NCBI GenBank assembly: GCA_030066195.1
Contig: JASJCB010000204.1
Span: forward strand, 1-20,090
Source of the DNA: Acidobacteriota bacterium
GTDB taxonomy: Bacteria; Acidobacteriota; Holophagae; Acanthopleuribacterales; Acanthopleuribacteraceae
Reading direction: 5' to 3'
Length of the DNA stretch: 20,090 nt
In this document: positions 2,484-19,733 of the stretch, piece by piece
Layout of the letters: each line of letters starts with the position of its first letter
Numbering within the stretch: the stretch's first letter is position 1
Notes under the pieces: model-generated
What the model saw: only the letters and a program-made list of their open reading frames with translations
Databases searched by the model: none
What the model was told of the DNA's origin: nothing
Translations under genes and position numbers: made by a program

Positions 2484-2594
2484 TACGGCCGATGCAGGGT
2501 TTCAACCTTCCTCGATTTTCCTCACCTCAGGTCGGGCAAAATCGTATAGAATCGGGCTTACAGCCTTGACGGAACCCTAAGGAGACCCGCCTTG

Positions 2595-3290
2595 ATGGAG
2601 TTATGGAATCTTGCCACCAGTCCGGTAATGTTGCCGCTAACCCTCATCTTCGGGCTTAGTATCGGCTACTGGATCGTGGTCATTGTCACCGGCATCGATT
2701 TCGATCTGGGTCTGGATGCCGACGTTGACGTGGATGTAGACGTGGATGTGGATGTAGACGTCGACGTGGACGCCGATGTTGACGCGGATGTGGATGCCCA
2801 TGCCGACCTCCACGGCGCCGCACATCAATTGGGTCCCCTGCTGTCCATGTTGGTCTTCTTCAACGTGGGAACCATACCGCTTACCTTTATCCTGGGTTTG
2901 AACGCCCTGTTCAGTTGGACCCTCGGCATGTTCGTGTTCAAAACTTTTCCGTTCAGCGGCCTGCTCGCCTATGCCCTGTACATTCCCATCTTCCTGGTGA
3001 GCGCCTTTGCCACCAAGCTGGTAACCCAACCGTTCGCCGGCATGGTGCGCCGCCACAAACAGGAAACGGCCGAGCGCCACACCGTCCTGGCCAAATTCGG
3101 CTATATGGAATCCGACAACGACGGTCAACGGCTTTCCCAATGCAAAGTACCTACCGACGGCGCCCCCTTTCTGGTCAATGTGAAGGCCCGTCCCGGCCAG
3201 GTCTTGAAACGGGGCGCCCGCGTGCTGATTATCGAGGAGGCCGAGGAAGGCAACTTCTACTACGTGGAAAATATGGATGAGAATAACTAG
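2595..3290 (+). CDS. NfeD/YqiJ-family membrane protein: N-terminal TM helices and C-terminal OB-fold-like NfeD domain. A (DV)n acidic repeat lies in the loop after TM1-2.
   Basis: AGGAG RBS about 12 nt upstream of ATG 2595 (track start 2592 is TTG). Several hydrophobic helices. C-terminal VPTDGAPFLVNVKARPGQVLKRGARVLIIEEAEEGNFYYVE resembles the NfeD beta-barrel. Sits immediately 5' of a flotillin gene, as in the yqiJ-yqiK and yuaF-floT arrangements. Confidence 0.7.
   Translation: MELWNLATSPVMLPLTLIFGLSIGYWIVVIVTGIDFDLGLDADVDVDVDVDVDVDVDVDADVDADVDAHADLHGAAHQLGPLLSMLVFFNVGTIPLTFILGLNALFSWTLGMFVFKTFPFSGLLAYALYIPIFLVSAFATKLVTQPFAGMVRRHKQETAERHTVLAKFGYMESDNDGQRLSQCKVPTDGAPFLVNVKARPGQVLKRGARVLIIEEAEEGNFYYVENMDENN
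2715..2807 (+). repeat. In-frame hexanucleotide tandem repeat (GAY GTN)x~15 encoding DADVDVDVDVDVDVDVDVDADVDADVDAHAD inside the NfeD-like gene.
   Basis: Seen directly in the sequence: alternating GAC/GAT and GTG/GTA/GTT/GTC codons with a few GCC substitutions. Confidence 0.9.
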
Positions 3291-3388
3291 GACTATTGAG
3301 AATCAAAACGTCCGTGACAAAAATCTGGTCGGTGTTTCCTATCGGGGAACCCGCATCACCGTGAAATACATTTTGGAGTGAACGACAT

Positions 3389-5770
3389 ATGGAATATTTA
3401 ATTATCGCCCTGGCGGGCCTTGTTGTCACCGTAATCGGGATTCTGTTCGTCTGGAAGAGTTTCTACCGCAAGGCCGTTCAAGGCCAGGCGCTGGTCAAAA
3501 CCGGTTTTGGGAAAACCAATGTCAGTTTCGACGCGGCCTGGGTCGTGCCGCTGTTGCACCGTTGCGAGGTAATGGACATTTCCGTCAAACGCGTCGTGTT
3601 GGAACGTAGCGGCAATGACGGCCTGGTCTGTCAGGACAATATGCGGGCCGATATCAAGGTCGCCTTCTTCGTCCGCGTCAACAACAATGTGGACGATGTC
3701 AAAAACGTTGCCACCACCATCGGGGTCACCCGTGCCTCCGATCGCCAGGCCATCAATGAGCTGTTCGATCCCAAATTCTCGGAAGCACTGAAGACAGCCG
3801 GCAAGAAGTTCGACTTCGTGGACCTCTACCAGGAACGCCGCCGCTTCAAAGAAGAGATTCTGGACGTTATCGGCACCGACCTCAACGGTTACATCTTGGA
3901 CGACTGCGCCATCGATTACCTGGAACAAACCGATATCAATAACCTCAGCGCCGACAACATTCTGGACGCAGAGGGCATCAAAAAGATCACCGAATTGACG
4001 GCCAACCAGAAGGTTCTGGCCAACCAGATCGATCGCGATCGCGAAAAGACCATCAAGCAGCAGGACGTTGAAGCGCAGGAAGCCATCCTCGAGTTGGAGC
4101 GCCAATTGGCCGAGACTCAGGAAAAGCAAAAGCGAGAGGTACTGTCCATCAAGGCCCGTGAGGCTGCCGAGGCCGCAAAGGTGCAACAGGAAGAACGCCT
4201 GAAAGCCGAAACCGCCCGCCTCCAGACCGAGGAAGAAGTTCAGGTAGCCACCCAGAACAAGGAACGCCAGGTCATCGTGGCCCAAAAGAACAAGGAACGC
4301 GCCGAGAAGATCGAGATCGAACGCATCGAGAAGGATCGTCAACTGGAAGTCATCGAGCGCGAACGCGTGGTAGAACTGACCACCATCGAAAAGGAACGGT
4401 CGGTAGAGGTAGAACGCAAGAACATCCAAGACGTGATCCGCGACCGCGTTGTGGTTGAGAAAGCGGTGGTCGAGGAAGAAGAGAAGATCAAGGACACCCG
4501 CGCCTTCGCAGAGGCGGAACGCGTCAAGCAGGTGACCGTCACCCAAGCCGCCACGGAAGCCGAAGAGGCCAAGGTCAAAGAAGTCAAGAAAGCGGAAGCC
4601 GAGAAGGAAGCGGCCGCGTTGCAGGCGGAGCAAAAGGTGATCGAAGCCGAGGCCGCGCGCAAATCGTCGGACAAAAACGCCGAGGCGCGTAAGGTTCTGG
4701 CCGAAGCCAAGGCCGCGGAAGACGCTACCATCGGCCTGGCCGAGGCCCAGGTGCAGGAAGCCAAGGCCAAGGCCGCCGAACTGGAAGGTCAGGCCCATGC
4801 CAACGTTCTGGAGAAGAAAGCCCTGGCGGAAGCAAAAGGCATCCAAGCCAAAGCCGATGCCATGGAGAAACAAGGTACGGCCGAGGCCAGTGTCATGGAG
4901 AAGAAAGCCGTCGCCGAGGCCAACGGCATCCAGGTCAAGGCCGATGCCCTGGAAAAGCAGGGCACCGTACGGGCAACCGTCCAGTTGAAGGAAATGGAAG
5001 CCAAGGCGAAGGGCACCGAAGCGCAGGGCACCGCCGAAGCCGTCGCCATGGAGAAACTGGCGTCCGCGGAAGCTTCAGGCCTGGCCATGAAGGTAGACGC
5101 CAAGGAAAAGGAAGGCTTGATGGAAGCCGCCGTCATCCAGAAGAAAGCCGAGGCCGAGGCTCGCGGCGAGGAAGCCCGCGCCGAAGCACTGGAACGCCTG
5201 GGCAGCGCCGAAGCCGCCAACCTGCTGAAGAAGTTCCAAGCCGACGCGCAGGGCATCCGCGAGAAGGCGGAAGCCATGAAGCTGTTCGATCCCGACGGCC
5301 GCAAGCACGAGGAATTCAAGCTGGAACTGGAAACGAAGCTGAAGGAAGTGCTGGCCTCGCTGGATACACAGAAGGACATCGCCAAAGCCCAGGCCGAAGT
5401 CATCGCCAAGGGCCTGGAAGCGGCCGATATCGAGATCGTGGGCGGCGAGTCCATGTTCTTCGACCGAATCGCCAACAGTATCGCCCAGGGCCGCTCGGTC
5501 GACCGTCTGCTGGAGAACAGCAAAGCCCTGACCGATGTCAAGGAGACCTTCTTCAACGGCGACCCCGAGTACTTCAAGTCGCAGCTCAAGGGTTTTGTGG
5601 ACCAGTTCGGCATGAGCAGCGCGGATCTCAAGAACCTGACGATCTCCGCGTTGATCGGCCAAATGATGAACAAAACCGACGACAGCAACACCCGCGGCCT
5701 GCTGGGCAAGCTCCTGGCCATGGCCGAAAGCGCCGGTCTGGGCAACCAATCCGCCGGCTTATTGGGTTGA
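3389..5770 (+). CDS. Flotillin-like SPFH/band-7 protein (YqiK/FloT family), 793 aa: N-terminal TM anchor, SPFH domain, and a very long E/A/K-rich coiled-coil tail with internal repeats.
   Basis: N-terminal hydrophobic helix (LIIALAGLVVTVIGILFVW). SPFH-like core (QALVKTGFG...VDISVKRVVLE...DNMRADIKVAFFVRV). EA-rich repetitive coiled coil typical of flotillins. Adjacent to an NfeD gene. GGAG RBS present. Confidence 0.9.
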   Translation: MEYLIIALAGLVVTVIGILFVWKSFYRKAVQGQALVKTGFGKTNVSFDAAWVVPLLHRCEVMDISVKRVVLERSGNDGLVCQDNMRADIKVAFFVRVNNNVDDVKNVATTIGVTRASDRQAINELFDPKFSEALKTAGKKFDFVDLYQERRRFKEEILDVIGTDLNGYILDDCAIDYLEQTDINNLSADNILDAEGIKKITELTANQKVLANQIDRDREKTIKQQDVEAQEAILELERQLAETQEKQKREVLSIKAREAAEAAKVQQEERLKAETARLQTEEEVQVATQNKERQVIVAQKNKERAEKIEIERIEKDRQLEVIERERVVELTTIEKERSVEVERKNIQDVIRDRVVVEKAVVEEEEKIKDTRAFAEAERVKQVTVTQAATEAEEAKVKEVKKAEAEKEAAALQAEQKVIEAEAARKSSDKNAEARKVLAEAKAAEDATIGLAEAQVQEAKAKAAELEGQAHANVLEKKALAEAKGIQAKADAMEKQGTAEASVMEKKAVAEANGIQVKADALEKQGTVRATVQLKEMEAKAKGTEAQGTAEAVAMEKLASAEASGLAMKVDAKEKEGLMEAAVIQKKAEAEARGEEARAEALERLGSAEAANLLKKFQADAQGIREKAEAMKLFDPDGRKHEEFKLELETKLKEVLASLDTQKDIAKAQAEVIAKGLEAADIEIVGGESMFFDRIANSIAQGRSVDRLLENSKALTDVKETFFNGDPEYFKSQLKGFVDQFGMSSADLKNLTISALIGQMMNKTDDSNTRGLLGKLLAMAESAGLGNQSAGLLG

Positions 5771-5778
5771 TCCACAAC

Positions 5779-5800
5779 GGGGGAGCCCGCGCGCTCCCCC
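5779..5800 (+). promoter_or_regulatory. GC-rich stem-loop (GGGGGAGC-ccgcgc-GCTCCCCC) between the flotillin stop and the giant ATPase start. No U-tract. Possible intra-operon attenuator or mRNA stabiliser.
   Basis: Perfect 8-bp inverted repeat read from the sequence, 9 nt after the flotillin TGA and 30 nt before the next start codon. Confidence 0.4.
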
Positions 5801-5830
5801 ACTTCATGCAAGACCGAGTATATCGATAGG

Positions 5831-8800
5831 GTGGATATGAGCGACGCTGTAGAAGAGCAAAAACAGGACGTCCAACTAGAGGGCGGCACCTACGAGATCA
5901 TCCGCAATCGACTCAACGGCCAGGCCGATGAATTGAGGGCGCGACTGAAGAAACTGAACGAAACCCGCAAGGCCACGTTCGGATCGATTGAAACCAAACT
6001 GGTGGGTAGCGAACGCATTACCACCGACAATAACTGTACGCCCAGGGACATGGTGCCCATCGGCGACAAATTTATCTTCGGCTACAATGTCCACGTGGGC
6101 TTACGCGCCGAGTTGGACCTGGACGATGTCTTCGCCGTTTACACCATCCATGACGACGGCTTCCGCCTGGAGAGCTTGGACCTGATCCGTGATCCCAAGT
6201 TCGAAAAAGATTTCCATAACTTATATAAGTATTATAAAAAAACTGTCTTTTCTACCTTTAAGGTCATCGGCCCCCACCTCTTCATGAAGTTTCGGGTGGG
6301 CGAGGCCATCAATGATTTCAAAACCTTCAAGTGGTTGATCGAGGGTGCCGGCCTTACGTATATGGACAACCGCTCCGACCACGAGTTCAAATACCCGCCC
6401 CAGCACGAATTCGAGTGGCTGCGCACTCGTCGCGACTGGTTCCGCATGGGCGCTCACCCGCATATCAGCATCGATGACCGCGTCTTTGTGGAGACCATCG
6501 GCGGCGACCTGACCATCAAGGTGGAAGACAATACCGACGTGGGCCACGGCATTCTGGACGAGCCCGTGGAAAACCCGGACCAGACCCTGGACGACGCTGA
6601 GATTTACTATGCCTCCATCGGTCCGCTGATTCTGCTGAAGATCCTGCCTTACCAGGAGAAGGAATGGCGCTACTTCGTCTTCAACGAGAAGTTGCAGGAG
6701 GCGCATCGCGTCGACGCCATTGCCGACAGTTGCGTGCTGCTGCCCGACGATCACGGCATCATCTTCCCCAAGGGTTACTACCTGCTGACGGGCGAGTTGA
6801 AAGAATTCGACAACCAGCTTTCCGACATGATCTTCGAAAGCCGCGTGCCCTCACCCAACGGCGAAGATTTCCTATACGTCTTCTACAACAGGCTGGACGG
6901 CGTCTATATCCTGCTCAGTTACAACTTGATCGAACAGAAGGTAGCCACGCCCATCATCTGCAGCGGCTTCTCGCTGTTTGAAGACGGCAAGCTGATCTAT
7001 TTCCGCGCCGACGCTCAACCCGCCAAGCACCACGCTCTGCAAATCTGGCAGACCGGCTACGTGGGACTCAACTACAAACAGGAAGACATGGCCGAAACCG
7101 CGCTCACCAAGATCGGCAACAAGGACGTGGTGCGCTGCATGGCGGAATGTCACGAGGTGCTGGTGCTCATCGGCAAGGAGGACGTCTACGCCAACCTGTA
7201 TGTGGACATCGTTCGCAAGGTCACGTCTATCGTTGACGCCTACTTCTGGCTGTCGAACGAGGGCGCCGAGAAACCACGCGAGGTGTTGGAACAGATTCGC
7301 ACCACCGCCAACGGGGCCATCGAGGAATTCGAGAAGGTCAACCGCATCAAAAAGGCCACCGCCGCCGAATTGGCGCGCGTCTCGGAAAAGGCCGATGCGC
7401 TGACTGCCGAGGTCAGCCGCACCCACTTCGAGGGCATTGGCGAATTCGTGCGCCTGCTGGCTGAACTGCGCACCCTGCGCGGCGAGATCATCGGCTGTCG
7501 TGAGCGCCGCTATATCGACCTGGAGCGCGTGGACGAATTGGAACAGCGCGCGGGCGAACAGGCCGATACGCTGTCGCAACGCTGCGTTGAGTTCCTATTG
7601 CAACCCGAAGCCTTGGAACCCTATGCCGATCGGGTAGCCGCACAGGAAACCGCGGTCGGCGACCTGGCTCGCGTCACCGCCGCCAAAGAGGTGGAAGACG
7701 CCCTGGACCAGGCCGGCAGCGACCTGGAACTGCTGATTGAAATCGTCAGCAATCTCAAGATCGACGACGCTACCGAGACCACCCGCATCATCGACAGTAT
7801 CTCGGCCATCTACGCCGACCTGAACCGGGTCAAAAGCGCGGTTAAAAACAAGAAAACCGAACTGGCCCGCGTGGAAGGCGTCGCCGAATTCAACGCCCAG
7901 ATGAAACTGGTCTCCCAAGGCCTCATCAACTACCTGGACGTCTGCGACACGCCGGATAAATGCGAGACCTACCTGACCAAGCTCACCGTGCAACTGGAAG
8001 AACTGGAAGGCAAGTTCGCCGAGTTCGACGAGTTCATCGAGCAGTTGACCGACAAACGCGAGGAAGTCTACAACGCCTTCGAGGCCAAGCGCCTGCAACT
8101 GGTAGAGGCCCGCAACAAAAAGGCAACCTCGCTGTTCGGTTCCGCCGAACGTATTCTCAAGGGTGTGCGCGGCCGCATCGCCAAATTCACCGACGTCAAC
8201 GAAATCAACGGTTACTTTGCCGGCGACCTGATGGTGGACAAGGTCCGCAACATCATGGCAAGCCTGGTGGACCTTGGTGAAACGGTGAAAGCCGACGACC
8301 TGCAAAGCCGTCTCAAGACCATCCGCGAAGAAGCCGTGCGCCAGTTGAAAGACAAGTTGGACCTGTACGAGGACGGCGGCAACCTGATCAAATTGGGCAA
8401 TCACAAATTCAGCGTCAACGCCCAGACCCTGGCTTTGACCACGGTCCTGCGCGAAGACAAACAGTACTTCCACCTCACGGGCACCAACTTCTTCGAGGAA
8501 ATCACGGACGCCGAACTCCTGGCCACCGAACCCGTCTGGGAGATGGAGGTCTCGAGTGAGAACCGCCGGGTTTACCGGGGCGAGTTCCTAGCCTACCAGA
8601 TGCTCCGCTCCCTGGAGACCGGTGAGGAACACACGGCTGCCGAAGCCCTGGCCATGGACGACGACGCCCTATTAACCTATGTCCAGCGATTCATGGGACC
8701 GCGTTTCAACGAGGGTTACGCCAAGGGCGTGCACGACCGTGACGCGGCATCGCTGCTGCGCGTGCTGCTGGAACTGCACGAAAAGCTGGGCCTGCTGGCC

Positions 8801-11248
8801 TATCCGCCGCGAACCCGCGCCTGCGCCATGGTCTTTTGGGAGCGCTTCTGTTCCGCCGGGCCTAAAGCCAACTTCCTGGCTACCTGCAAGGGCTTGCGCG
8901 CCCTGACCGAACTGTTCCCCGAGAACAAACAATCCGTTGCCTTTATCGCCGGCCTGGAGCAGTTGATCGGGCGCTTCTTGGAAACCTCCGGCCTGTTCGA
9001 GAGTCACCGCGCTCACGATGCCGCCGTCTACCTGTTCCGCGAGTTGATCCACGGCAACGGCTTCGCGATCTCCCAAGAGGCCGGCGTCATCTACCGGGAA
9101 CTGGTCGCCTACCTGAAACACCGCAACGCGCAAGACAGCTTCCGCGCCAACTTGAAGACCCTGGAAAAGGACCCGATCAAGGCATTCAACCTGTGCCGGG
9201 AGTGGGTGGCGGCCTATATCGACGCGGAAGTGAACGGCGAGGACGATTTTGAAGACGAAGTGGCGGCGCTGCTGTTCACTGAAAGCTACGATCCCGAACG
9301 GGTGGCCGAGGTTACCGTCAACCGCGACCTGACCGGGTTCAAGGGCAACCACCCGCTGCTTGAAGGCGGCAACTATCACCTGAACTACAACGCCTTCATG
9401 GAAAAGCTGGCCCAATTCCAACGGGATGTCAGCCCCAAGTACACGTGCTATCTCAGCTTGAAGAAAAAGCTCAGCGAAGAATTTGCCGTGGATTTGCGCC
9501 TGGAGGAATTCAAGCCGCGCGTGCTGACCAGTTTCGTGCGCAACAAGTTGTTGGACCAGGTCTACCTGCCGATTATCGGCGACAACCTGGCCAAGCAAAT
9601 CGGCGCCGCCGGCGCGGGCACCCGCACGGATCGCATGGGCATGCTCCTGCTCATATCACCCCCCGGCTACGGTAAAACCACCCTGATGGAGTACATCGCC
9701 AATCGCCTGGGCCTGATCTTCATGAAGATCAACGGGCCCGCCATCGGTCACGAGGCAACCAGTATCGACCCCGCCGCCGCCCCTCATTCCGCGGCTCGCG
9801 AGGAATTGAACAAGCTGAACCTGTCCTTGGAAATGGGCGATAACGTGATGATCTATCTGGACGACATCCAGCACTGTAACCCGGAACTCCTGCAAAAGTT
9901 CATCTCCCTGTGCGACGCCCAAAGGAAGATAGAGGGCGTCTACAAGGGCCGCACCCGCACCTATGACCTGCGCGGCAAGAAGGTCTGCGTGGTCATGGCG
10001 GGCAACCCCTACACCGAATCGGGCGACAAGTTCCAGATCCCCGACATGCTGGCCAACCGCGCCGACACCTACAACCTGGGCGATATCATCGGCGACCAGG
10101 CAAGCTCCTTCGAACTGAGCTATGTGGAAAACGCGCTGACCAGCAACCCGGTCCTCAATAAACTGGCGGGCCGCAGCCAGAAAGACGTCTATAGCCTGAT
10201 CAAAATCACGGAAACGGGAACCCGCGAGGGCATCGAACTCGAGGGCAATTACACCAATGAAGAAGTCAGCGAGTTCAGCAACGTCCTGGCCAAACTCTTC
10301 CGCGTGCGCGATGTCATCCTGCGCGTCAACCTGGAGTACATCCGCTCCGCGGCCATGGAAGACGCCTATCGCACCGAACCGGCCTTCAAGCTACAGGGCA
10401 GCTACCGCAATATGAATAAAATCGCCGAGAAGGTGCTGCCCATTATGAACGACGCGGAACTGGAAACCCTGATTGCCTCCCACTACGAAAACGAGGCCCA
10501 AACCCTGACCAGCGGCGCGGAAGCCAACCTGCTCAAGTTCCGCGAACTTTGCGGGACCATGACCGGGGAAGAACAAAACCGCTGGACCCAAATCAAGCGT
10601 ACCTTCCACAAAAAGCAATCCATGCACGGCGTCGATTCGGAAGACAAGGTGGGCCAGGTGATCTTGCAACTGGCCAATTTCGGCGAAGGTCTGGAGGCCA
10701 TCAAAGACACCCTGGCCAAGGTCGCGGAAAACCGCGAACCCATCGACGAAATCCAGGAAGAGGGCCCGTTGGAAACCCACACCACGCTGTCCCCGGACAC
10801 CCTCACAAACCTGGGCGGCCTGCTCCAACCCATGATGGAAACCATGGGCAAATCGTTGGCGCAAGCCACGGCCGGCCAGGAGGCAAACCGGGCGCTGGAA
10901 CAGGCAAGGGCGCAAATCCAGGCCCTGGAAGCGGCAAAAAGAGAAGCGGAAGCCAAAAAGCCGGAACCCGCACCCGCCCAACCTGCCGCACCTAAAAAAC
11001 CAACCCCGGAAATCGACCCGCGCTTCTTGATGAAGGTCATCCGCCAGCAGTTCAACGTCATGCACCACTGGCTGAAACCCCTCTACGACACGGCGGTCAA
11101 GAACGACAAAACGGTAGACGACCTGAACGCGGCGGTCAATAACCTCATGACCACCCACGGCAGCTTGCTGAACTACCTCCAGCAATTCCAGGGAACCAGG
11201 AAACCAGCTCCGAAACAACCGCCGAGAAGAAAGAAGACCGAAACTTAA
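5831..11248 (+). CDS. Giant 1805-aa protein. Residues 1 to ~1250 are unassigned, with coiled-coil segments around residues ~480-560 and ~700-780. Residues ~1260-1520 form an AAA+ ATPase core of the AAA_5/MoxR/McrB type. The tail has a Pro/Ala/Lys-rich linker and a small terminal domain. GTG at 5831 or ATG at 5837.
   Basis: Walker A LLLISPPGYGKTT (nt 9665..9682 = GYGKTT). Walker B VMIYLDDIQH (DD at 9860..9865). Sensor-1-like VVMAGNPYT. Arg motif PDMLANRADTYNL. Uninterrupted 5.4-kb ORF with host-like codon usage. AGGGTGG RBS. Only 60 bp from the flotillin gene. Confidence 0.85.
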   Translation: MDMSDAVEEQKQDVQLEGGTYEIIRNRLNGQADELRARLKKLNETRKATFGSIETKLVGSERITTDNNCTPRDMVPIGDKFIFGYNVHVGLRAELDLDDVFAVYTIHDDGFRLESLDLIRDPKFEKDFHNLYKYYKKTVFSTFKVIGPHLFMKFRVGEAINDFKTFKWLIEGAGLTYMDNRSDHEFKYPPQHEFEWLRTRRDWFRMGAHPHISIDDRVFVETIGGDLTIKVEDNTDVGHGILDEPVENPDQTLDDAEIYYASIGPLILLKILPYQEKEWRYFVFNEKLQEAHRVDAIADSCVLLPDDHGIIFPKGYYLLTGELKEFDNQLSDMIFESRVPSPNGEDFLYVFYNRLDGVYILLSYNLIEQKVATPIICSGFSLFEDGKLIYFRADAQPAKHHALQIWQTGYVGLNYKQEDMAETALTKIGNKDVVRCMAECHEVLVLIGKEDVYANLYVDIVRKVTSIVDAYFWLSNEGAEKPREVLEQIRTTANGAIEEFEKVNRIKKATAAELARVSEKADALTAEVSRTHFEGIGEFVRLLAELRTLRGEIIGCRERRYIDLERVDELEQRAGEQADTLSQRCVEFLLQPEALEPYADRVAAQETAVGDLARVTAAKEVEDALDQAGSDLELLIEIVSNLKIDDATETTRIIDSISAIYADLNRVKSAVKNKKTELARVEGVAEFNAQMKLVSQGLINYLDVCDTPDKCETYLTKLTVQLEELEGKFAEFDEFIEQLTDKREEVYNAFEAKRLQLVEARNKKATSLFGSAERILKGVRGRIAKFTDVNEINGYFAGDLMVDKVRNIMASLVDLGETVKADDLQSRLKTIREEAVRQLKDKLDLYEDGGNLIKLGNHKFSVNAQTLALTTVLREDKQYFHLTGTNFFEEITDAELLATEPVWEMEVSSENRRVYRGEFLAYQMLRSLETGEEHTAAEALAMDDDALLTYVQRFMGPRFNEGYAKGVHDRDAASLLRVLLELHEKLGLLAYPPRTRACAMVFWERFCSAGPKANFLATCKGLRALTELFPENKQSVAFIAGLEQLIGRFLETSGLFESHRAHDAAVYLFRELIHGNGFAISQEAGVIYRELVAYLKHRNAQDSFRANLKTLEKDPIKAFNLCREWVAAYIDAEVNGEDDFEDEVAALLFTESYDPERVAEVTVNRDLTGFKGNHPLLEGGNYHLNYNAFMEKLAQFQRDVSPKYTCYLSLKKKLSEEFAVDLRLEEFKPRVLTSFVRNKLLDQVYLPIIGDNLAKQIGAAGAGTRTDRMGMLLLISPPGYGKTTLMEYIANRLGLIFMKINGPAIGHEATSIDPAAAPHSAAREELNKLNLSLEMGDNVMIYLDDIQHCNPELLQKFISLCDAQRKIEGVYKGRTRTYDLRGKKVCVVMAGNPYTESGDKFQIPDMLANRADTYNLGDIIGDQASSFELSYVENALTSNPVLNKLAGRSQKDVYSLIKITETGTREGIELEGNYTNEEVSEFSNVLAKLFRVRDVILRVNLEYIRSAAMEDAYRTEPAFKLQGSYRNMNKIAEKVLPIMNDAELETLIASHYENEAQTLTSGAEANLLKFRELCGTMTGEEQNRWTQIKRTFHKKQSMHGVDSEDKVGQVILQLANFGEGLEAIKDTLAKVAENREPIDEIQEEGPLETHTTLSPDTLTNLGGLLQPMMETMGKSLAQATAGQEANRALEQARAQIQALEAAKREAEAKKPEPAPAQPAAPKKPTPEIDPRFLMKVIRQQFNVMHHWLKPLYDTAVKNDKTVDDLNAAVNNLMTTHGSLLNYLQQFQGTRKPAPKQPPRRKKTET

Positions 11249-13553: not shown

Positions 13554-14348
13554 CTATTCGGGGCAGGGCTCGTTAGTGGACCGGATTAACTCTGAAATAT
13601 CGGTTTGGCCGGGCCGGACCGGCATTTTCTGCCGGAAGGTTTGGGTTGAAGTCCAGTTGCAGTAGATTCGGTACACGTCCACATGGTTGACGAAGGGGCC
13701 GCTGCCCAGTAACAGGTAATCGTCAGCCAGGGTAAGGCCCCTGCGACTGGAGCTAAAATCGGAGCTATTGCCGAAATGCCTGATAAAGACGGGTCGATCC
13801 GGGTTGCTGATGTCCAACAAATCGAGCGCCCGGTTTTGCGCAAGAGCGACCAGTAGATCCCCCGACAGAACAAGGTTTCTGTATAACCCGGTTCCTGCAA
13901 AAAGATACCGTTCCTCCGGTTGGGCGGGGTCGGTAATGTCGATGACCCGGATACCGGTGGTGGCGGAGGCGATATAGAGCCGATCGGTAATCGGGTCCAA
14001 GGCAAGGTGTTGTCCGTCCCACCCGGCAATGGTCGTCACGTGTTGCGGATCGGCCGGATCGTTGACGTCGAAGATATGCAGGCCGTTCTCACCCACCACA
14101 TAGGCATAACCCTCGGCGACTTCGATATCCAGTCCATCCCCGGCATTCATGAGTACCTGAGCCGCGAAGTCCGGTGCGCCCAGCACATCGATGGTGCTGA
14201 ATTGGTGTTCGTAGAGCATGTAGGCATAACCGCCGTCCACCGTCAATCGAGTCGGGCCGTCCAAAACCATGGGGACATCTCCCACCGGTGTGATCATGCT
14301 CGGGTCGCTGATATCGTAGGCCCGGAAACCGTGGGAAAAGTCGGCCAT
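13554..14348 (-). CDS. LVIVD-repeat beta-propeller protein, apparently truncated at its 5' end by the adjacent hairpin-repeat array. No signal peptide, and the first Met lies inside a repeat. Possible pseudogene.
   Basis: LVIVD-type repeats (GYAYVVGENGLHIFDVNDPADP; LYIASATTGIRVIDITDPAQP; LLVALAQNRALDLLDISNPDRP). The reading frame continues 5 codons (KINGI) into the first repeat unit, then hits an in-frame TAA at the unit boundary. Confidence 0.55.
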   Translation of the reverse strand: MADFSHGFRAYDISDPSMITPVGDVPMVLDGPTRLTVDGGYAYMLYEHQFSTIDVLGAPDFAAQVLMNAGDGLDIEVAEGYAYVVGENGLHIFDVNDPADPQHVTTIAGWDGQHLALDPITDRLYIASATTGIRVIDITDPAQPEERYLFAGTGLYRNLVLSGDLLVALAQNRALDLLDISNPDRPVFIRHFGNSSDFSSSRRGLTLADDYLLLGSGPFVNHVDVYRIYCNWTSTQTFRQKMPVRPGQTDISELIRSTNEPCPE

Positions 14349-14354
14349 GTAGGC

Positions 14355-14727
14355 GATACCGTTGATTTTACCCCCTATGTAATCTACATAGGGTTAGATA
14401 CCGTTGATTTTACCCCCTATGTAATCTACATAGGGTTAGATACCGTTGATTTTGGGGAGCATTAGATTACATAGGGTCTGAAACCGCTGATTTTGCCCCC
14501 TATGTAACGTGCATAGGGTTGGAAACCGTTGATTCGGCCCCCTATGGAGTTTACATAGAGGGTAAATCATCGTGACAAGACCCTCATGGGAAAAATGTCG
14601 CCCAAAATCAACGGTATCTAACCCTATGGAGATTGCATAGGGGTCAACATCAACGGTATCTAACCCTATGCACGCTACATAGGGGTCAAAATCAACGGTA
14701 TCTAACCCTATGCAGGTTAATGGGTTG
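14355..14727. repeat. Array of eight ~42-bp hairpin repeat units. Five direct units lie at 14355-14564, then a 39-bp centre, then three inverted units at 14604-14727. Consensus: GATACCGTTGATTTT-ACC-CCCTATG-[7 nt variable loop]-CATAGGG-TTA.
   Basis: Seen directly. Units 1 and 2 are identical (loop TAATCTA). Unit 3 carries the inverted loop TAGATTA with a decayed left stem arm. Unit 4 loop is TAACGTG and unit 5 GAGTTTA. Reverse-strand units carry loops related to those on the left arm. Overall the array is an imperfect ~370-bp palindrome. Confidence 0.9.
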
Positions 14728-14822
14728 TCATATCAGCACTTCACAACTATATTTTTTCAATTCGGCTTGTGGCGACCGTGTCGGGTCGGGTAGAATAAGC
14801 CTGACCACCCCAGCGGAGTTCA

Positions 14823-15824
14823 TTGTTGCGGATTCTTTTCGAATCGAACCACGTATATCCGGCCGGCGGCTCTACCGGTACCGGTTTATCTCCCAATTCC
14901 CTGGCCACCGGCGGTTCCAGCATGGTTCACGACCTCCTGGCCCGTGCCCTGGCCGAGTTGGGTCATCAGGTCTTTTATCTCTTGCCCAACAGTCGCGATC
15001 CCGACCTGCCCGATGGGGTTACGCATCTCACTCATCCCATCGTCGATGTGGATGTCTTCCATCATTACAACAGTCAGAAGCTGTTCGAATCCAAAGCCCT
15101 TGAATCAATTCAAGCAGCCGGCATACCCTGGGTGGTTACCTGTCACAACGCGCCCGGGCATTGGGGCGGCGCTCGTGGTGATGTCCGCGACAATTGGATC
15201 TTCGTTTCCAAGACCCTGGCCGAAGCCCATGGCAGCGGGCGCTACGTTTGGAACGGCGTGGACCCGGAGGCGCTTCAGTTCAGTAGGGTCAAGCAGGACT
15301 ACCTTCTGTTCATCAGCAATATGCGGAACCTGGATCAGGTTTATGCCAAAGGTCTCGATCTTGCCTTGGAAGTTTCGGCCCGGTCGGGTTGCCCGCTACG
15401 GGTTATCGGTTCCTGCCGCGACCGCGAAACTATCGACGCCGTGACCGACATGTGCCGTCGCGCCGATGCTCACTTCCTGGGGGATGTTCGCGGTATCGAG
15501 AAAGCTCGACTCCTGGCCTCGGCCAAAGCACTTTTGTTTACCTCGCGATTACATGAGGCGTTCGGGCTTCCCATCATCGAGGCCGCGGTAAGCGGGACCC
15601 CGGTTATCAGCTTGAACATCGGCGCCGCCGAAGAACTGGTTTCCGTCAGCATGGGTTTCGTTTGTGCCGATGTTCAGGAGATGGTCTGTCGCGTCGACAG
15701 GGTATCGGCTGTCGACCCTGAGACCTGTCGGGCTCACGCACTCGAACGTTTTCACTACCACCGGACGGCGCGTGAATACCTGACGCAGTACCAATTGGAG
15801 ATGGAGGGCGTGTCATGTCCCTGA
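14823..15824 (+). CDS. Glycosyltransferase family 4 (GT-B, retaining type), TTG start.
   Basis: N-terminal ILFESNHVYPAGG and C-terminal EAFGLPIIEAAVSGTPVIS (E-x7-E) motifs typical of GT4. GGAG RBS 5 nt upstream. Confidence 0.75.
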   Translation: MLRILFESNHVYPAGGSTGTGLSPNSLATGGSSMVHDLLARALAELGHQVFYLLPNSRDPDLPDGVTHLTHPIVDVDVFHHYNSQKLFESKALESIQAAGIPWVVTCHNAPGHWGGARGDVRDNWIFVSKTLAEAHGSGRYVWNGVDPEALQFSRVKQDYLLFISNMRNLDQVYAKGLDLALEVSARSGCPLRVIGSCRDRETIDAVTDMCRRADAHFLGDVRGIEKARLLASAKALLFTSRLHEAFGLPIIEAAVSGTPVISLNIGAAEELVSVSMGFVCADVQEMVCRVDRVSAVDPETCRAHALERFHYHRTAREYLTQYQLEMEGVSCP

Positions 15825-18719: not shown

Positions 18720-18866
18720 CTGCAAAATGTTGGTTTAATACCCAAAACCATCTCTGATTGTCATAACATACCTCCTTCTTTGCTGCGCTTGGAGCGCATC
18801 TCTACCATAAATATAGATCCTCCAAGCCGTCTTCGCAAGGGACATTTTGGCACTTCCCTTCTTCAC

Positions 18867-19523
18867 CTAGGCTACCAACTTACTAACATAGGCGCCCACT
18901 ACGCCGGAGGCAATAAGCCCTAGCACATACAGAATAAAACTAGCGCCCACCCGCATTCTTTTACAAATTCCCGTCACCTTTGCATGTTCAAGCGGCCGAA
19001 CCTGTCCGATTGGGAATAATAAATCTCCTGTTTCCATGATGTTATGATCTGGTTTGGGATCCAGAAGCTTCCTTCTTTTTCCCGGCGTTACAGTTATGTG
19101 CACAAGATCCGCGTGGCAATCATGAGAAACCATCGTCTGTAGGAACATATGTTCTCTGAACCAGTCTCCAATAATTCTAAAGGGCTTGGAAACCGTGTAA
19201 CTGAATGAAAAGCTAAATTCGTCATCCATTTCCAAGTCTTTCCCGTACAAAATACTTATTTTTGTACCACCTTCCACGGACTCTTTTTTTGCTTGGAGGC
19301 TGTGGTCCTCAGAGATATAAGCACTTAGGTCTTGGATTTGGTCAACACCGACTTTGTGTTGCCAGTCACGATGGACTAAATCACCGATGACCCTGATGAC
19401 ATAAGAATAGGTATACCTGACTTTGTTTTTTTCTGTTAGATCTAATCCGTATTTAAGGGATACTATTTTTATTGTTGGGTCTATCGGAGTATTTGCTCTA
19501 TAGACATCATCTTTGTAAACCAT
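18867..19523 (-). CDS. Hypothetical 218-aa protein with a single C-terminal TM helix (tail-anchored), encoded in an AT-rich (~40% GC) islet. Likely horizontally acquired. Function unknown.
   Basis: Clean ORF with AT-rich codon usage unlike its neighbours. C-terminal ASFILYVLGLIASGVVGAYVSKLVA hydrophobic segment. No recognisable motifs. Confidence 0.45.
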   Translation of the reverse strand: MVYKDDVYRANTPIDPTIKIVSLKYGLDLTEKNKVRYTYSYVIRVIGDLVHRDWQHKVGVDQIQDLSAYISEDHSLQAKKESVEGGTKISILYGKDLEMDDEFSFSFSYTVSKPFRIIGDWFREHMFLQTMVSHDCHADLVHITVTPGKRRKLLDPKPDHNIMETGDLLFPIGQVRPLEHAKVTGICKRMRVGASFILYVLGLIASGVVGAYVSKLVA

Positions 19524-19733
19524 TGTTCAATCCCCAAAGAAAGTTATTTATTTACATAAACTTAATGTGACCATTCAAGCCTACTACCCTGGAAAACCAA
19601 AGTCAAGTATAAGGAAAACGTAAAAGAGGTTAGGATTTAGTGGGTTTGCCTGAATTGCCATGCATCATGGTTGTACCATGAGGGAGCTTGCGTGTTAGGA
19701 TTTACGCGACAGAATTCACTTCAGGAGGGTCCC

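Follow-up and report, generated by a model that had tools for sequence, protein, structure and literature searches.

A contig of 20,090 nt from an NCBI metagenome-assembled genome (MAG) labelled "Acidobacteriota bacterium" (locus tag QNK37), analysed over its whole length and called the window here, carries, between two divergent genes, an array of short hairpin-like repeats that takes up most of the intergenic space. What kind of DNA is this array? An original prediction, made from the sequence alone, described direct and inverted units in mirror image at 14355-14727. It likened them to repetitive extragenic palindromes (REPs) and the bacterial interspersed mosaic elements (BIMEs) built from them, to stacked transposase-binding sites at transposon ends, or to an iteron-type origin. 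Our analysis suggests, with a probability of about 0.72, that the array is a copy, truncated at both ends, of a composite foldback repeat that is non-coding, interspersed and lineage-specific and that we infer to be non-autonomous mobile DNA. The repeat is modular and folds back on itself, and it is present in many copies at unrelated intergenic sites of one genome.

Two facing arrays of 41-42-nt units

The five direct and three inverted units of 41-42 nt that had been predicted are present at 14355-14702, at frequencies well beyond chance. Eight copies of the 15-mer GATACCGTTGATTTT (≤3 mismatches) lie in the array, compared with 0.49 expected in the whole 20-kb window, and CCCTATG-N7-CATAGGG occurs 6 times (0.05 expected). 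Tandem Repeats Finder returned a period of 42 on both arms. Over 109 nt, the arms at 14355-14463 and at 14594-14702 show 87% complementarity, and the region as single-stranded (ss) DNA forms a single long foldback of -125.8 kcal/mol (z = -18.7). The G+C content is 0.43 in the element and 0.56 across the window. Units are named below after the body that follows the 15-mer head, those with a palindromic body being H-type. The element is made up of the following parts:

14355-14396 (U1) and 14397-14438 (U2), plus strand: H-type units of 42 nt with one and the same sequence, unlike any other pair in the window; each reads 15-mer GATACCGTTGATTTT followed by ACC-CCCTATGTA-ATC-TACATAGGG-TTA.
14439-14479 (U3), plus strand: 41-nt unit with its 5′ stem arm replaced (GGGGAGCAT), so that the stem is not intact.
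14480-14521 (U4) and 14522-14563 (U5), plus strand: units with the GAAACC variant of the 15-mer.
14540-14560: palindrome of U5, the centre at which the orientation of the array switches.
14564-14576, minus strand: degenerate 15-mer GTCACGATGATTT, the head of the unit bearing the central palindrome.
14577-14618, minus strand: C1-type unit GATACCGTTGATTTT-GGGCGACATTTTTCCCATGAGGGTCTT, the innermost inverted unit, with no hairpin and reading ...CATTTTTCCCATGAGGGTCTT.
14619-14660 and 14661-14702, minus strand: two H-type units in inverted orientation, their loops being CAATCTC and TAGCGTG.
14703-14760, minus strand: End-A module, with the 27-mer GACAACCCATTAACCTGCATAGGGTTA (14703-14729), a 15-mer-like GTGAAGTGCTGATAT and a C3 remnant TTGAAAAAATATAGTT.
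14725-14753, plus strand: sigma-70-like TTGTCA-17 nt-TATATT inside End-A, matching 10 of 12 consensus positions (a consensus match only).

The identity of U1 and U2 points to a recent tandem duplication, and U3 resembles a chimera in which a C-type head is joined to an H-type tail, its loop, TAGATTA, being flipped. A conserved hairpin stem had been claimed for every unit; this is true of most units, but not of U3 or of the C1 unit at 14577-14618. The 39-bp core that had been taken as unique turned out to be the C1 unit plus the degenerate 15-mer, and it recurs at at least eight other loci; GTCACGATGATTT also follows C1 units in the related loci L004, L009 and L010. Likewise, what had been seen as a separate AT-rich flank is the conserved End-A module. 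The element thus runs past 14727 to about 14760, and all-vs-all blastn delimited a shared repeat at 14354-14756. The End-A module of the window is shortened relative to its copies in L003, L004 and L006-L009. Since outer modules are absent on both sides, the window copy is truncated at both ends.

The promoter-like hexamers in End-A face out of the element, toward a glycosyltransferase gene. The same hexamers, equally spaced, are found in L007 and L009. We rejected an outward promoter as a general role, because the -10 hexamer is degenerate in the other copies and the orientation of the adjoining gene fits at some loci only.

The array had also been judged not to be a clustered regularly interspaced short palindromic repeat (CRISPR) locus, and we agree. 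In CRISPR arrays identical repeats alternate with unique spacers of ~25-40 bp, and cas genes are usually present. Here there are no spacers, variation is limited to at most 3-7 nt per 42-nt unit and falls into few classes, and no cas domains were found in the window.

The array is one of at least ten clusters in a single genome

Metagenome contigs were scanned with the pattern CCCTATG-N7-CATAGGG-N3-GAWACCGYTGAT. This strict unit pattern recovered nine further stretches with 4-10 units each, all in metagenome assembly JAAUYB01; about 90 units in 10 clusters were thus obtained from one strict pattern, with contigs breaking at arrays. Proteins beside the clusters of L005, L008 and L010 bear the names of the MAG of the window ("Acidobacteriota bacterium"), and the QNK37 locus tag is found at L005, at L010 and in the window. 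The clusters and the window therefore belong to one genome, which has at least 10 such loci. The cluster of L008 is base-for-base identical in an independent ENA assembly (second copy, L012).

All-vs-all blastn revealed that the loci have only a repeat region of 290-600 bp in common. Their neighbours are unrelated and ordinary: beta-helix, MAPEG and LanC-like proteins, a Ser/Thr kinase, a GGDEF protein, an M20 peptidase, an injection-system tube protein, a hemopexin and others. All clusters lie between open reading frames (ORFs), upstream of genes about as often as downstream.

Two unit patterns gave no match in 185,579 species genomes (one genome per species). No match to the repeat pattern was found in viral contigs, and no similarity to the repeat in 72,556 plasmids and 50,697 phages. 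As the species genomes and viral contigs gave no match and, in the metagenome collection, a single assembly holds every further copy, the family can be regarded as uncatalogued and lineage-specific. Papers searched for the sample, accession or run identifiers contained nothing relevant.

Module architecture of the family

A register of 41-42 nt is kept throughout the family. Each unit consists of the 15-mer head GAWACCGTTGATTTT, or a decayed form of it, and one of several bodies of 26-27 nt. The commonest body (H) is the 21-bp palindrome CCCTATGYA-NNN-TRCATAGGG. Its variant H′ has CATACCC for CATAGGG and makes up 11 of the 46 units with both arms readable. The S body (CCCTCTCAG...) makes a 41-nt unit, and the other bodies are C1, C2, C3 and A. 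C-type units number 12 across L003, L004, L005, L007, L009, L010 and the window.

The modules keep their order across loci: a C3-A block is followed by H units, by an inversion point on one palindrome and by inverted units, with 2-6 H units per arm. The End-A 27-mer and the C1, C2 and C3 modules keep their order as well, the recurrent series being End-A 27-mer, H units, C1 unit and inversion point. A C1 unit adjoins the inversion point in most copies, on either side; the central C1 module of L007 is in the opposite arm to that of the window. Two facing tandem arrays make each 0.3-0.6-kb cluster an imperfect foldback. All eight clusters that have units in both orientations are convergent (+++++---, ++++++---- and so on). 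The inversion points are long perfect hairpins formed by a 15-mer, the palindrome and an inverted 15-mer (e.g., L008 3548-3604).

Additional outer modules are present in L004, L006 and L008, where similarity begins sharply at GTTGTGYCCGGTTGTCAAAT with unrelated DNA upstream. On the other side (B side), L005, L006 and L008 have a module of ~100 nt in common. In L006 and L008, the outer modules of opposite arms are inverted copies of each other (45 nt at 80% in L008, 39 nt at 85% in L006).

Further regularities were seen in some loci. At L011 6727-6975 and L003 215-437, H and S units alternate with a higher-order period of 83-84 nt, which indicates that pairs of units have been duplicated, not single units alone. 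An outer module P (L004 ~690-640, L006 ~5150-5100, L008 3232-3300) contains the perfect hairpin ATTCCTC-ATTT-GAGGAAT and, on the opposite strand, a perfect TTGACA; the likeness of this hairpin to the dRS3 repeat of Neisseria (ATTCCC-N8-GGGAAT) is probably a coincidence. The B-side module (L005 6290-6400, L006 ~4700-4600, L008 3645-3760) opens with AAAATGG and shows two 3-nt indels among its copies. The starts of its short ORFs (18-35+ aa) are loosely conserved as M(D/G)(V/L)...A(L/V)R(L/F)R, a likeness too weak for a gene to be called on it.

A coding minisatellite was considered and rejected. One period equals 14 codons, a frame reading DTVDFxPYxxxIGL is open, and the GGG-to-CCC variant is codon-aligned. 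Against this, both orientations occur, the other frames contain stops, the frame has neither a start codon nor a protein match, and a 14-codon frame is open by chance in ~50% of cases.

The palindrome and selection on structure

Conserved stems with variable 7-nt loops had been taken as a sign of selection on structure, and this argument was not upheld. When 46 H-type units from the window and the related loci were aligned, positions 2 and 6 of the "loop" were found to be an almost invariant A...T pair, and positions 1 and 7 to be mostly T-A, T-G or C-G. Since positions 2 and 6 pair, the palindrome is one of 9+9 bp around a 3-nt centre. The loops fall into few classes, TAATCTA (13 units), TAGCGTG (10) and CACGCTA, its flipped form (5), which fits a centre flipped by exchange between the stem arms.

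Stem positions were paired in 89.6% of cases, exactly the 89.6% expected from shuffled alignments, and the covariation score was 0.072 versus 0.071 in shuffles. Changes on both sides were seen only in the loop-closing pair, and the three outer pairs are broken in 9-12 of the 46 units (mostly through CATACCC for CATAGGG). As the stem is mostly invariant, its conservation is uninformative either way, and the units do not demonstrate selection on structure. A dimeric DNA-binding protein would equally give a palindrome that is conserved around a variable centre.

The flanks of 53 H units were also compared. The palindrome is preceded by xACC and followed by TTAG or GGTA. None of GTAG, CTAC, CGTC and GACG adjoins it in these 53 units; GTAG occurs only inside some loops.

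Origin of the array and alternative explanations

[quoted passage not shown] Our best guess is a Y1/HUH transposase, either a REP-associated tyrosine transposase (RAYT) or one of the TIRYT type, or else a site-specific recombinase. The Y1/HUH enzyme is the leading candidate because Acidobacteria have a RAYT-like group of their own, TIRYT. Local change would then come from slippage or unequal exchange of units, from recombination of one inverted arm with the other (which would account for flipped loops and an inverted centre) and from deletion; the gene to the left of the array probably lost its 5′ part in such an event. Three pairs of neighbouring units are identical, all of them within loci, compared with 0 of 1768 between-locus pairs. 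Any host function would be secondary.

Several points weigh against this explanation. All the evidence comes from one sample. Adjacent units are on average no more alike than units of different loci (similarity 0.627 versus 0.616, p = 0.33), so that the arrays would have to be old mosaics in which recent local amplification is occasional and not dominant. No transposase or RAYT gene was found in the ~70 kb of flanks examined or among the ORFs of the window. No convincing target-site duplication was detected at the cluster ends; the B-side ends are ragged, while the left terminus is sharp in three copies. An empty-site comparison was tried among database relatives and yielded no orthologous empty site: the nearest PurL is 71% and the nearest LVIVD protein 29% identical, and the databases contain no close relative. 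Finally, the number of units and the join over 14388-14518 rest on one short-read assembly, because the Logan and ENA contigs of the same sample stop within it (at 14387, 14519 and 14708) and the MAG contig alone spans 14388-14518.

These breaks are what would favour an assembly artefact, in which the mirror-image arrangement or the whole junction was created from short metagenome reads. Contig breaks inside an array are, though, the usual signature of multi-copy DNA. From 14519 on, an ENA scaffold independently holds U5, the C1 unit and the complete right arm, with 1 mismatch in 5572 bases. The same convergent architecture is found inside the long contigs of L005, L008 and L010, the L008 cluster being confirmed by the second assembly, and the arms are 87% alike, not identical as in a hairpin chimera. 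We consider an artefact very unlikely.

REP copy number is usually above 100 per genome. In a strict REP/BIME explanation the 21-bp palindromes would be REPs cut and spread as ssDNA hairpins by a RAYT or TIRYT enzyme, and the inversion point would be a doublet like that of a REPIN. The palindromes are indeed short, extragenic, multi-copy and clustered; at 21 bp they fall within the 20-40 bp range of imperfect REP palindromes, and the inversion points form long perfect hairpins. Acidobacteria encode their own distinct TIRYT transposases, and in some of the species surveyed the corresponding terminal inverted repeats (TIRs) form repeated families, some in dimers or clusters; the inverted units contain GGGGTSAA, which matches 7 of 8 positions of the GGGGWSAS motif of some of these TIRs (PMC3733652). 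REPs, however, have beside one end of their palindrome a tag, GTAG (or CGTC), that stays unpaired (PMC3733652), and no such tag lies beside the palindrome here. BIMEs consist of REPs that are spaced regularly and alternate in orientation (PMC2817692), whereas here direct tandem units undergo a single switch. The 11 of 46 units with CATACCC lose three stem pairs with no compensatory changes, and the flanks examined contain no Y1 transposase gene. The predicted likeness to REPs and BIMEs thus extends to the interspersion at nine further loci, but not to the tag or the alternation; the units do occur at many loci, but they are neither a catalogued REP family nor typically arranged BIMEs. We regard this explanation as unlikely. 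An equally tentative proposal is that the clusters represent an undescribed type of foldback element, in which convergent arrays of 42-bp modules would be recognised by a dedicated TIRYT-type HUH transposase or recombinase and would remodel neighbouring genes for surface proteins, secreted proteins and polysaccharides. If so, the arrays would be hotspots of recombination or cruciform formation, and a neighbouring LVIVD gene that starts in mid-repeat would be the result of one such event.

A phased array of binding sites, with a dimer on the 9+3+9 palindrome, a protein like integration host factor (IHF) or HU on the 15-mer, or a recombinase, is compatible with the mobile-repeat explanation. It would make the clusters a nucleoprotein structure or recombination hotspot near surface and polysaccharide genes. 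The 42-bp period amounts arithmetically to four helical turns, and a dimer operator classically has conserved half-sites on either side of a variable centre, which would explain stem and loop without any hairpin. The complement of the 15-mer, AAAATCAACGGTTTC, fits 8 of the 9 specified positions of the IHF consensus WATCAANNNNTTR (8/9 for the GAAACC form and 7/9 for the GATACC form). IHF-binding BIME-1 elements (RIB/RIP) have this consensus between their palindromes. Several neighbours are of surface or secreted type (LVIVD, beta-helix, FG-GAP, hemopexin, glycosyltransferases), and the dRS3 arrays of Neisseria, for which a recombinase has been proposed, share the logic (PMC1797815). Yet the exact consensus WATCAANNNNTTR is absent from both strands of 14355-14760, a quarter of the units retain just one intact half-site, none of the clusters has a linked gene for a candidate protein, and the mix of decayed and chimeric units resembles neutral decay, not maintained sites. 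As a full explanation it seems to us rather improbable.

Structured small RNAs, or hairpins that stabilise or terminate RNA, would put the selection at the RNA level. A 9-bp hairpin is possible in every H unit and the region as a whole has a strong fold; transcription of REP and BOX elements is common (PMC3733652, PMC3049150). However, no Rfam 15 match at gathering score was found in the window (chance-level hits only, best E = 0.43) or in the 45 kb of related loci L003-L011, and the array contains no terminator-like site. The shuffle-level covariation, the many broken stems, the presence of both orientations within clusters and the even distribution upstream and downstream of genes also speak against an RNA function, which is very improbable. 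The origin-type explanations (iteron origin, plasmid or chromosome centromere resembling sopC/parS, ends of an autonomous transposon) draw on direct and inverted repeats that adjoin an AT-richer stretch. Centromeres like sopC have units of ~43 bp with short inverted repeats. But at least 10 clusters in ordinary chromosomal contexts of one genome do not fit any of them. The window and the flanks lack rep, par, dnaA and transposase genes, no transposase gene lies between the arms of, or adjoins, any cluster, nothing similar exists among the plasmids and phages searched, and the AT-rich stretch is itself a repeat module. These explanations are in effect refuted, and with them the predicted iteron origin and stacked transposon ends.

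Neighbouring genes and other features of the window

The genes on the two sides of the element are:

13554-14348, minus strand: LVIVD-repeat ORF QNK37_30735, 264 aa, with its ATG 6 nt from the array.
14823-15824, plus strand: GT4 glycosyltransferase gene, which leads a GT4-PhyH-YdjC-GT25 cluster and has its transcription directed away from the array.

QNK37_30735 is 100% identical to the LVIVD ORF of the window. The start of the ORF falls midway through an LVIVD repeat (MADFSHGFRAYDISDPS...); the ORF lacks a signal peptide, and its frame continues into U1 (...YVDYIGGKINGI-AYMADFSHGFRAYDISDPS) until a TAA stop (13554-14396, minus strand). Only two homologues were found, both distant (27-29% identical). 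The gene appears to have been truncated at its 5′ end at the edge of the repeat cluster. A derivation of the repeat unit from the LVIVD gene was examined and discarded: there are weak similarities of 16 nt (families D3-D5), but the unit is found genome-wide.

On the ENA scaffold (L001), a run of N at ~5604 comes straight after the end of the window contig. Because of this gap, the link to a downstream purL depends on scaffolding in a single assembly. PurL (L001 6313-10203) has a best overall match of 71% identity, and its named top matches are from Gammaproteobacteria (65-67%). The Acidobacteriota label is that of the MAG itself, and the gammaproteobacterial-like PurL makes either the host taxonomy or the binning or scaffolding less than certain.

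Elsewhere in the window, a patch at 18800-19600 has a G+C content of 0.375-0.46, compared with 0.56, and carries on the minus strand an orphan ORF of 218 aa with no Pfam or PADLOC match. Upstream of the array, 2592-11248 (plus strand) is an apparent three-gene operon. Its first gene encodes a membrane protein with an acidic (DV)n repeat, which accounts for the tandem repeats of 6, 12, 18 and 24 nt at 2713-2802. The second encodes 793 aa with a hydrophobic N-terminus and without any Pfam match at E ≤ 0.001; it has a very long stretch rich in Ala, Glu and Lys, of coiled-coil appearance, which accounts for an AT skew of ~0.5 at 4000-5200; by eye the protein looks flotillin-like. The third encodes a protein of 1805 aa with DUF3686, DUF7902 and AAA ATPase domains. 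A link of these genes to a defence system was rejected, a weak LmuB-like match of this protein being the only one found.

Comparison with known repeat systems

REP/BIME, BOX, MITEs and the Neisseria intergenic mosaic elements (NIMEs) shape transcription, recombination and genome assembly, but characterised members come from only a few well-studied phyla. The family described here appears, from its sequence and distribution, to be an uncatalogued, lineage-specific member of this familiar kind of bacterial mobile or "junk" repeat. It provides a clean example from an uncultured, probably acidobacterial lineage, and its present value is that of a descriptive addition and not of a new principle. 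In practical terms, the clusters break short-read assemblies of the host and can create doubtful joins. Should a cognate transposase or recombinase be found, the family would become a tractable model of how composite repeats spread and grow.

The closest known architecture appears to be that of the pneumococcal BOX element and, more loosely, those of BIMEs and NIMEs. BOX of Streptococcus pneumoniae is a composite of the form A-Bn-C (boxA, a variable number of tandem boxB modules, boxC) of 67-637 bp (PMC3049150). As in BOX of S. pneumoniae and S. suis, the repeats here are interspersed, non-coding, intergenic composites of terminal modules and variable tandem modules (~45 nt in BOX); they measure from tens to ~600 bp, fold back, change locally in module number and have frames open on both strands (PMC3049150). 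The two have no sequence relationship and come from different phyla. Whereas BOX modules lie between two short TIR modules, the tandem modules here form both convergent arms, with several body subtypes behind one 15-mer head, and the target-site duplications reported for BOX were not found.

With REPs, BIMEs, REPINs and the TIRs of TIRYT transposases, the family shares short, extragenic, clustered palindromes and inverted doublets that form long hairpins (PMC2817692, PMC3733652). Species-specificity is shared too, as would be a transposase encoded elsewhere in the genome. It differs from REP/BIME in the absence of a GTAG/CGTC head, in the direct tandem register of 41-42 bp in place of alternation, and in a palindrome whose middle is AT-rich and whose ends have just 3 G:C pairs each.

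NIMEs resemble it in having a short inverted repeat whose arms are conserved and whose centre varies (ATTCCC-N8-GGGAAT in dRS3, CCCTATG-N7-CATAGGG here), in interleaved repeat modules, dynamic arrays and proximity to surface-related genes, and in being genus-specific (PMC1797815). The spacers here, however, consist of one conserved 15-mer and 6 nt, whereas NIMEs have more than 100 families of 50-150-bp RS elements (PMC1797815). The foldback polarity of each cluster is a further difference from NIMEs, and no cognate recombinase or phage is known for the present family. Eukaryotic foldback (FB) transposons also have long inverted arms built of short tandem sub-repeats, but they are much larger and some have coding DNA between the arms, so that the analogy is a formal one only. 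What is distinct in the present family is the combination of strict 42-bp phasing, one 15-mer head with many bodies, and arms made of convergent tandem arrays.

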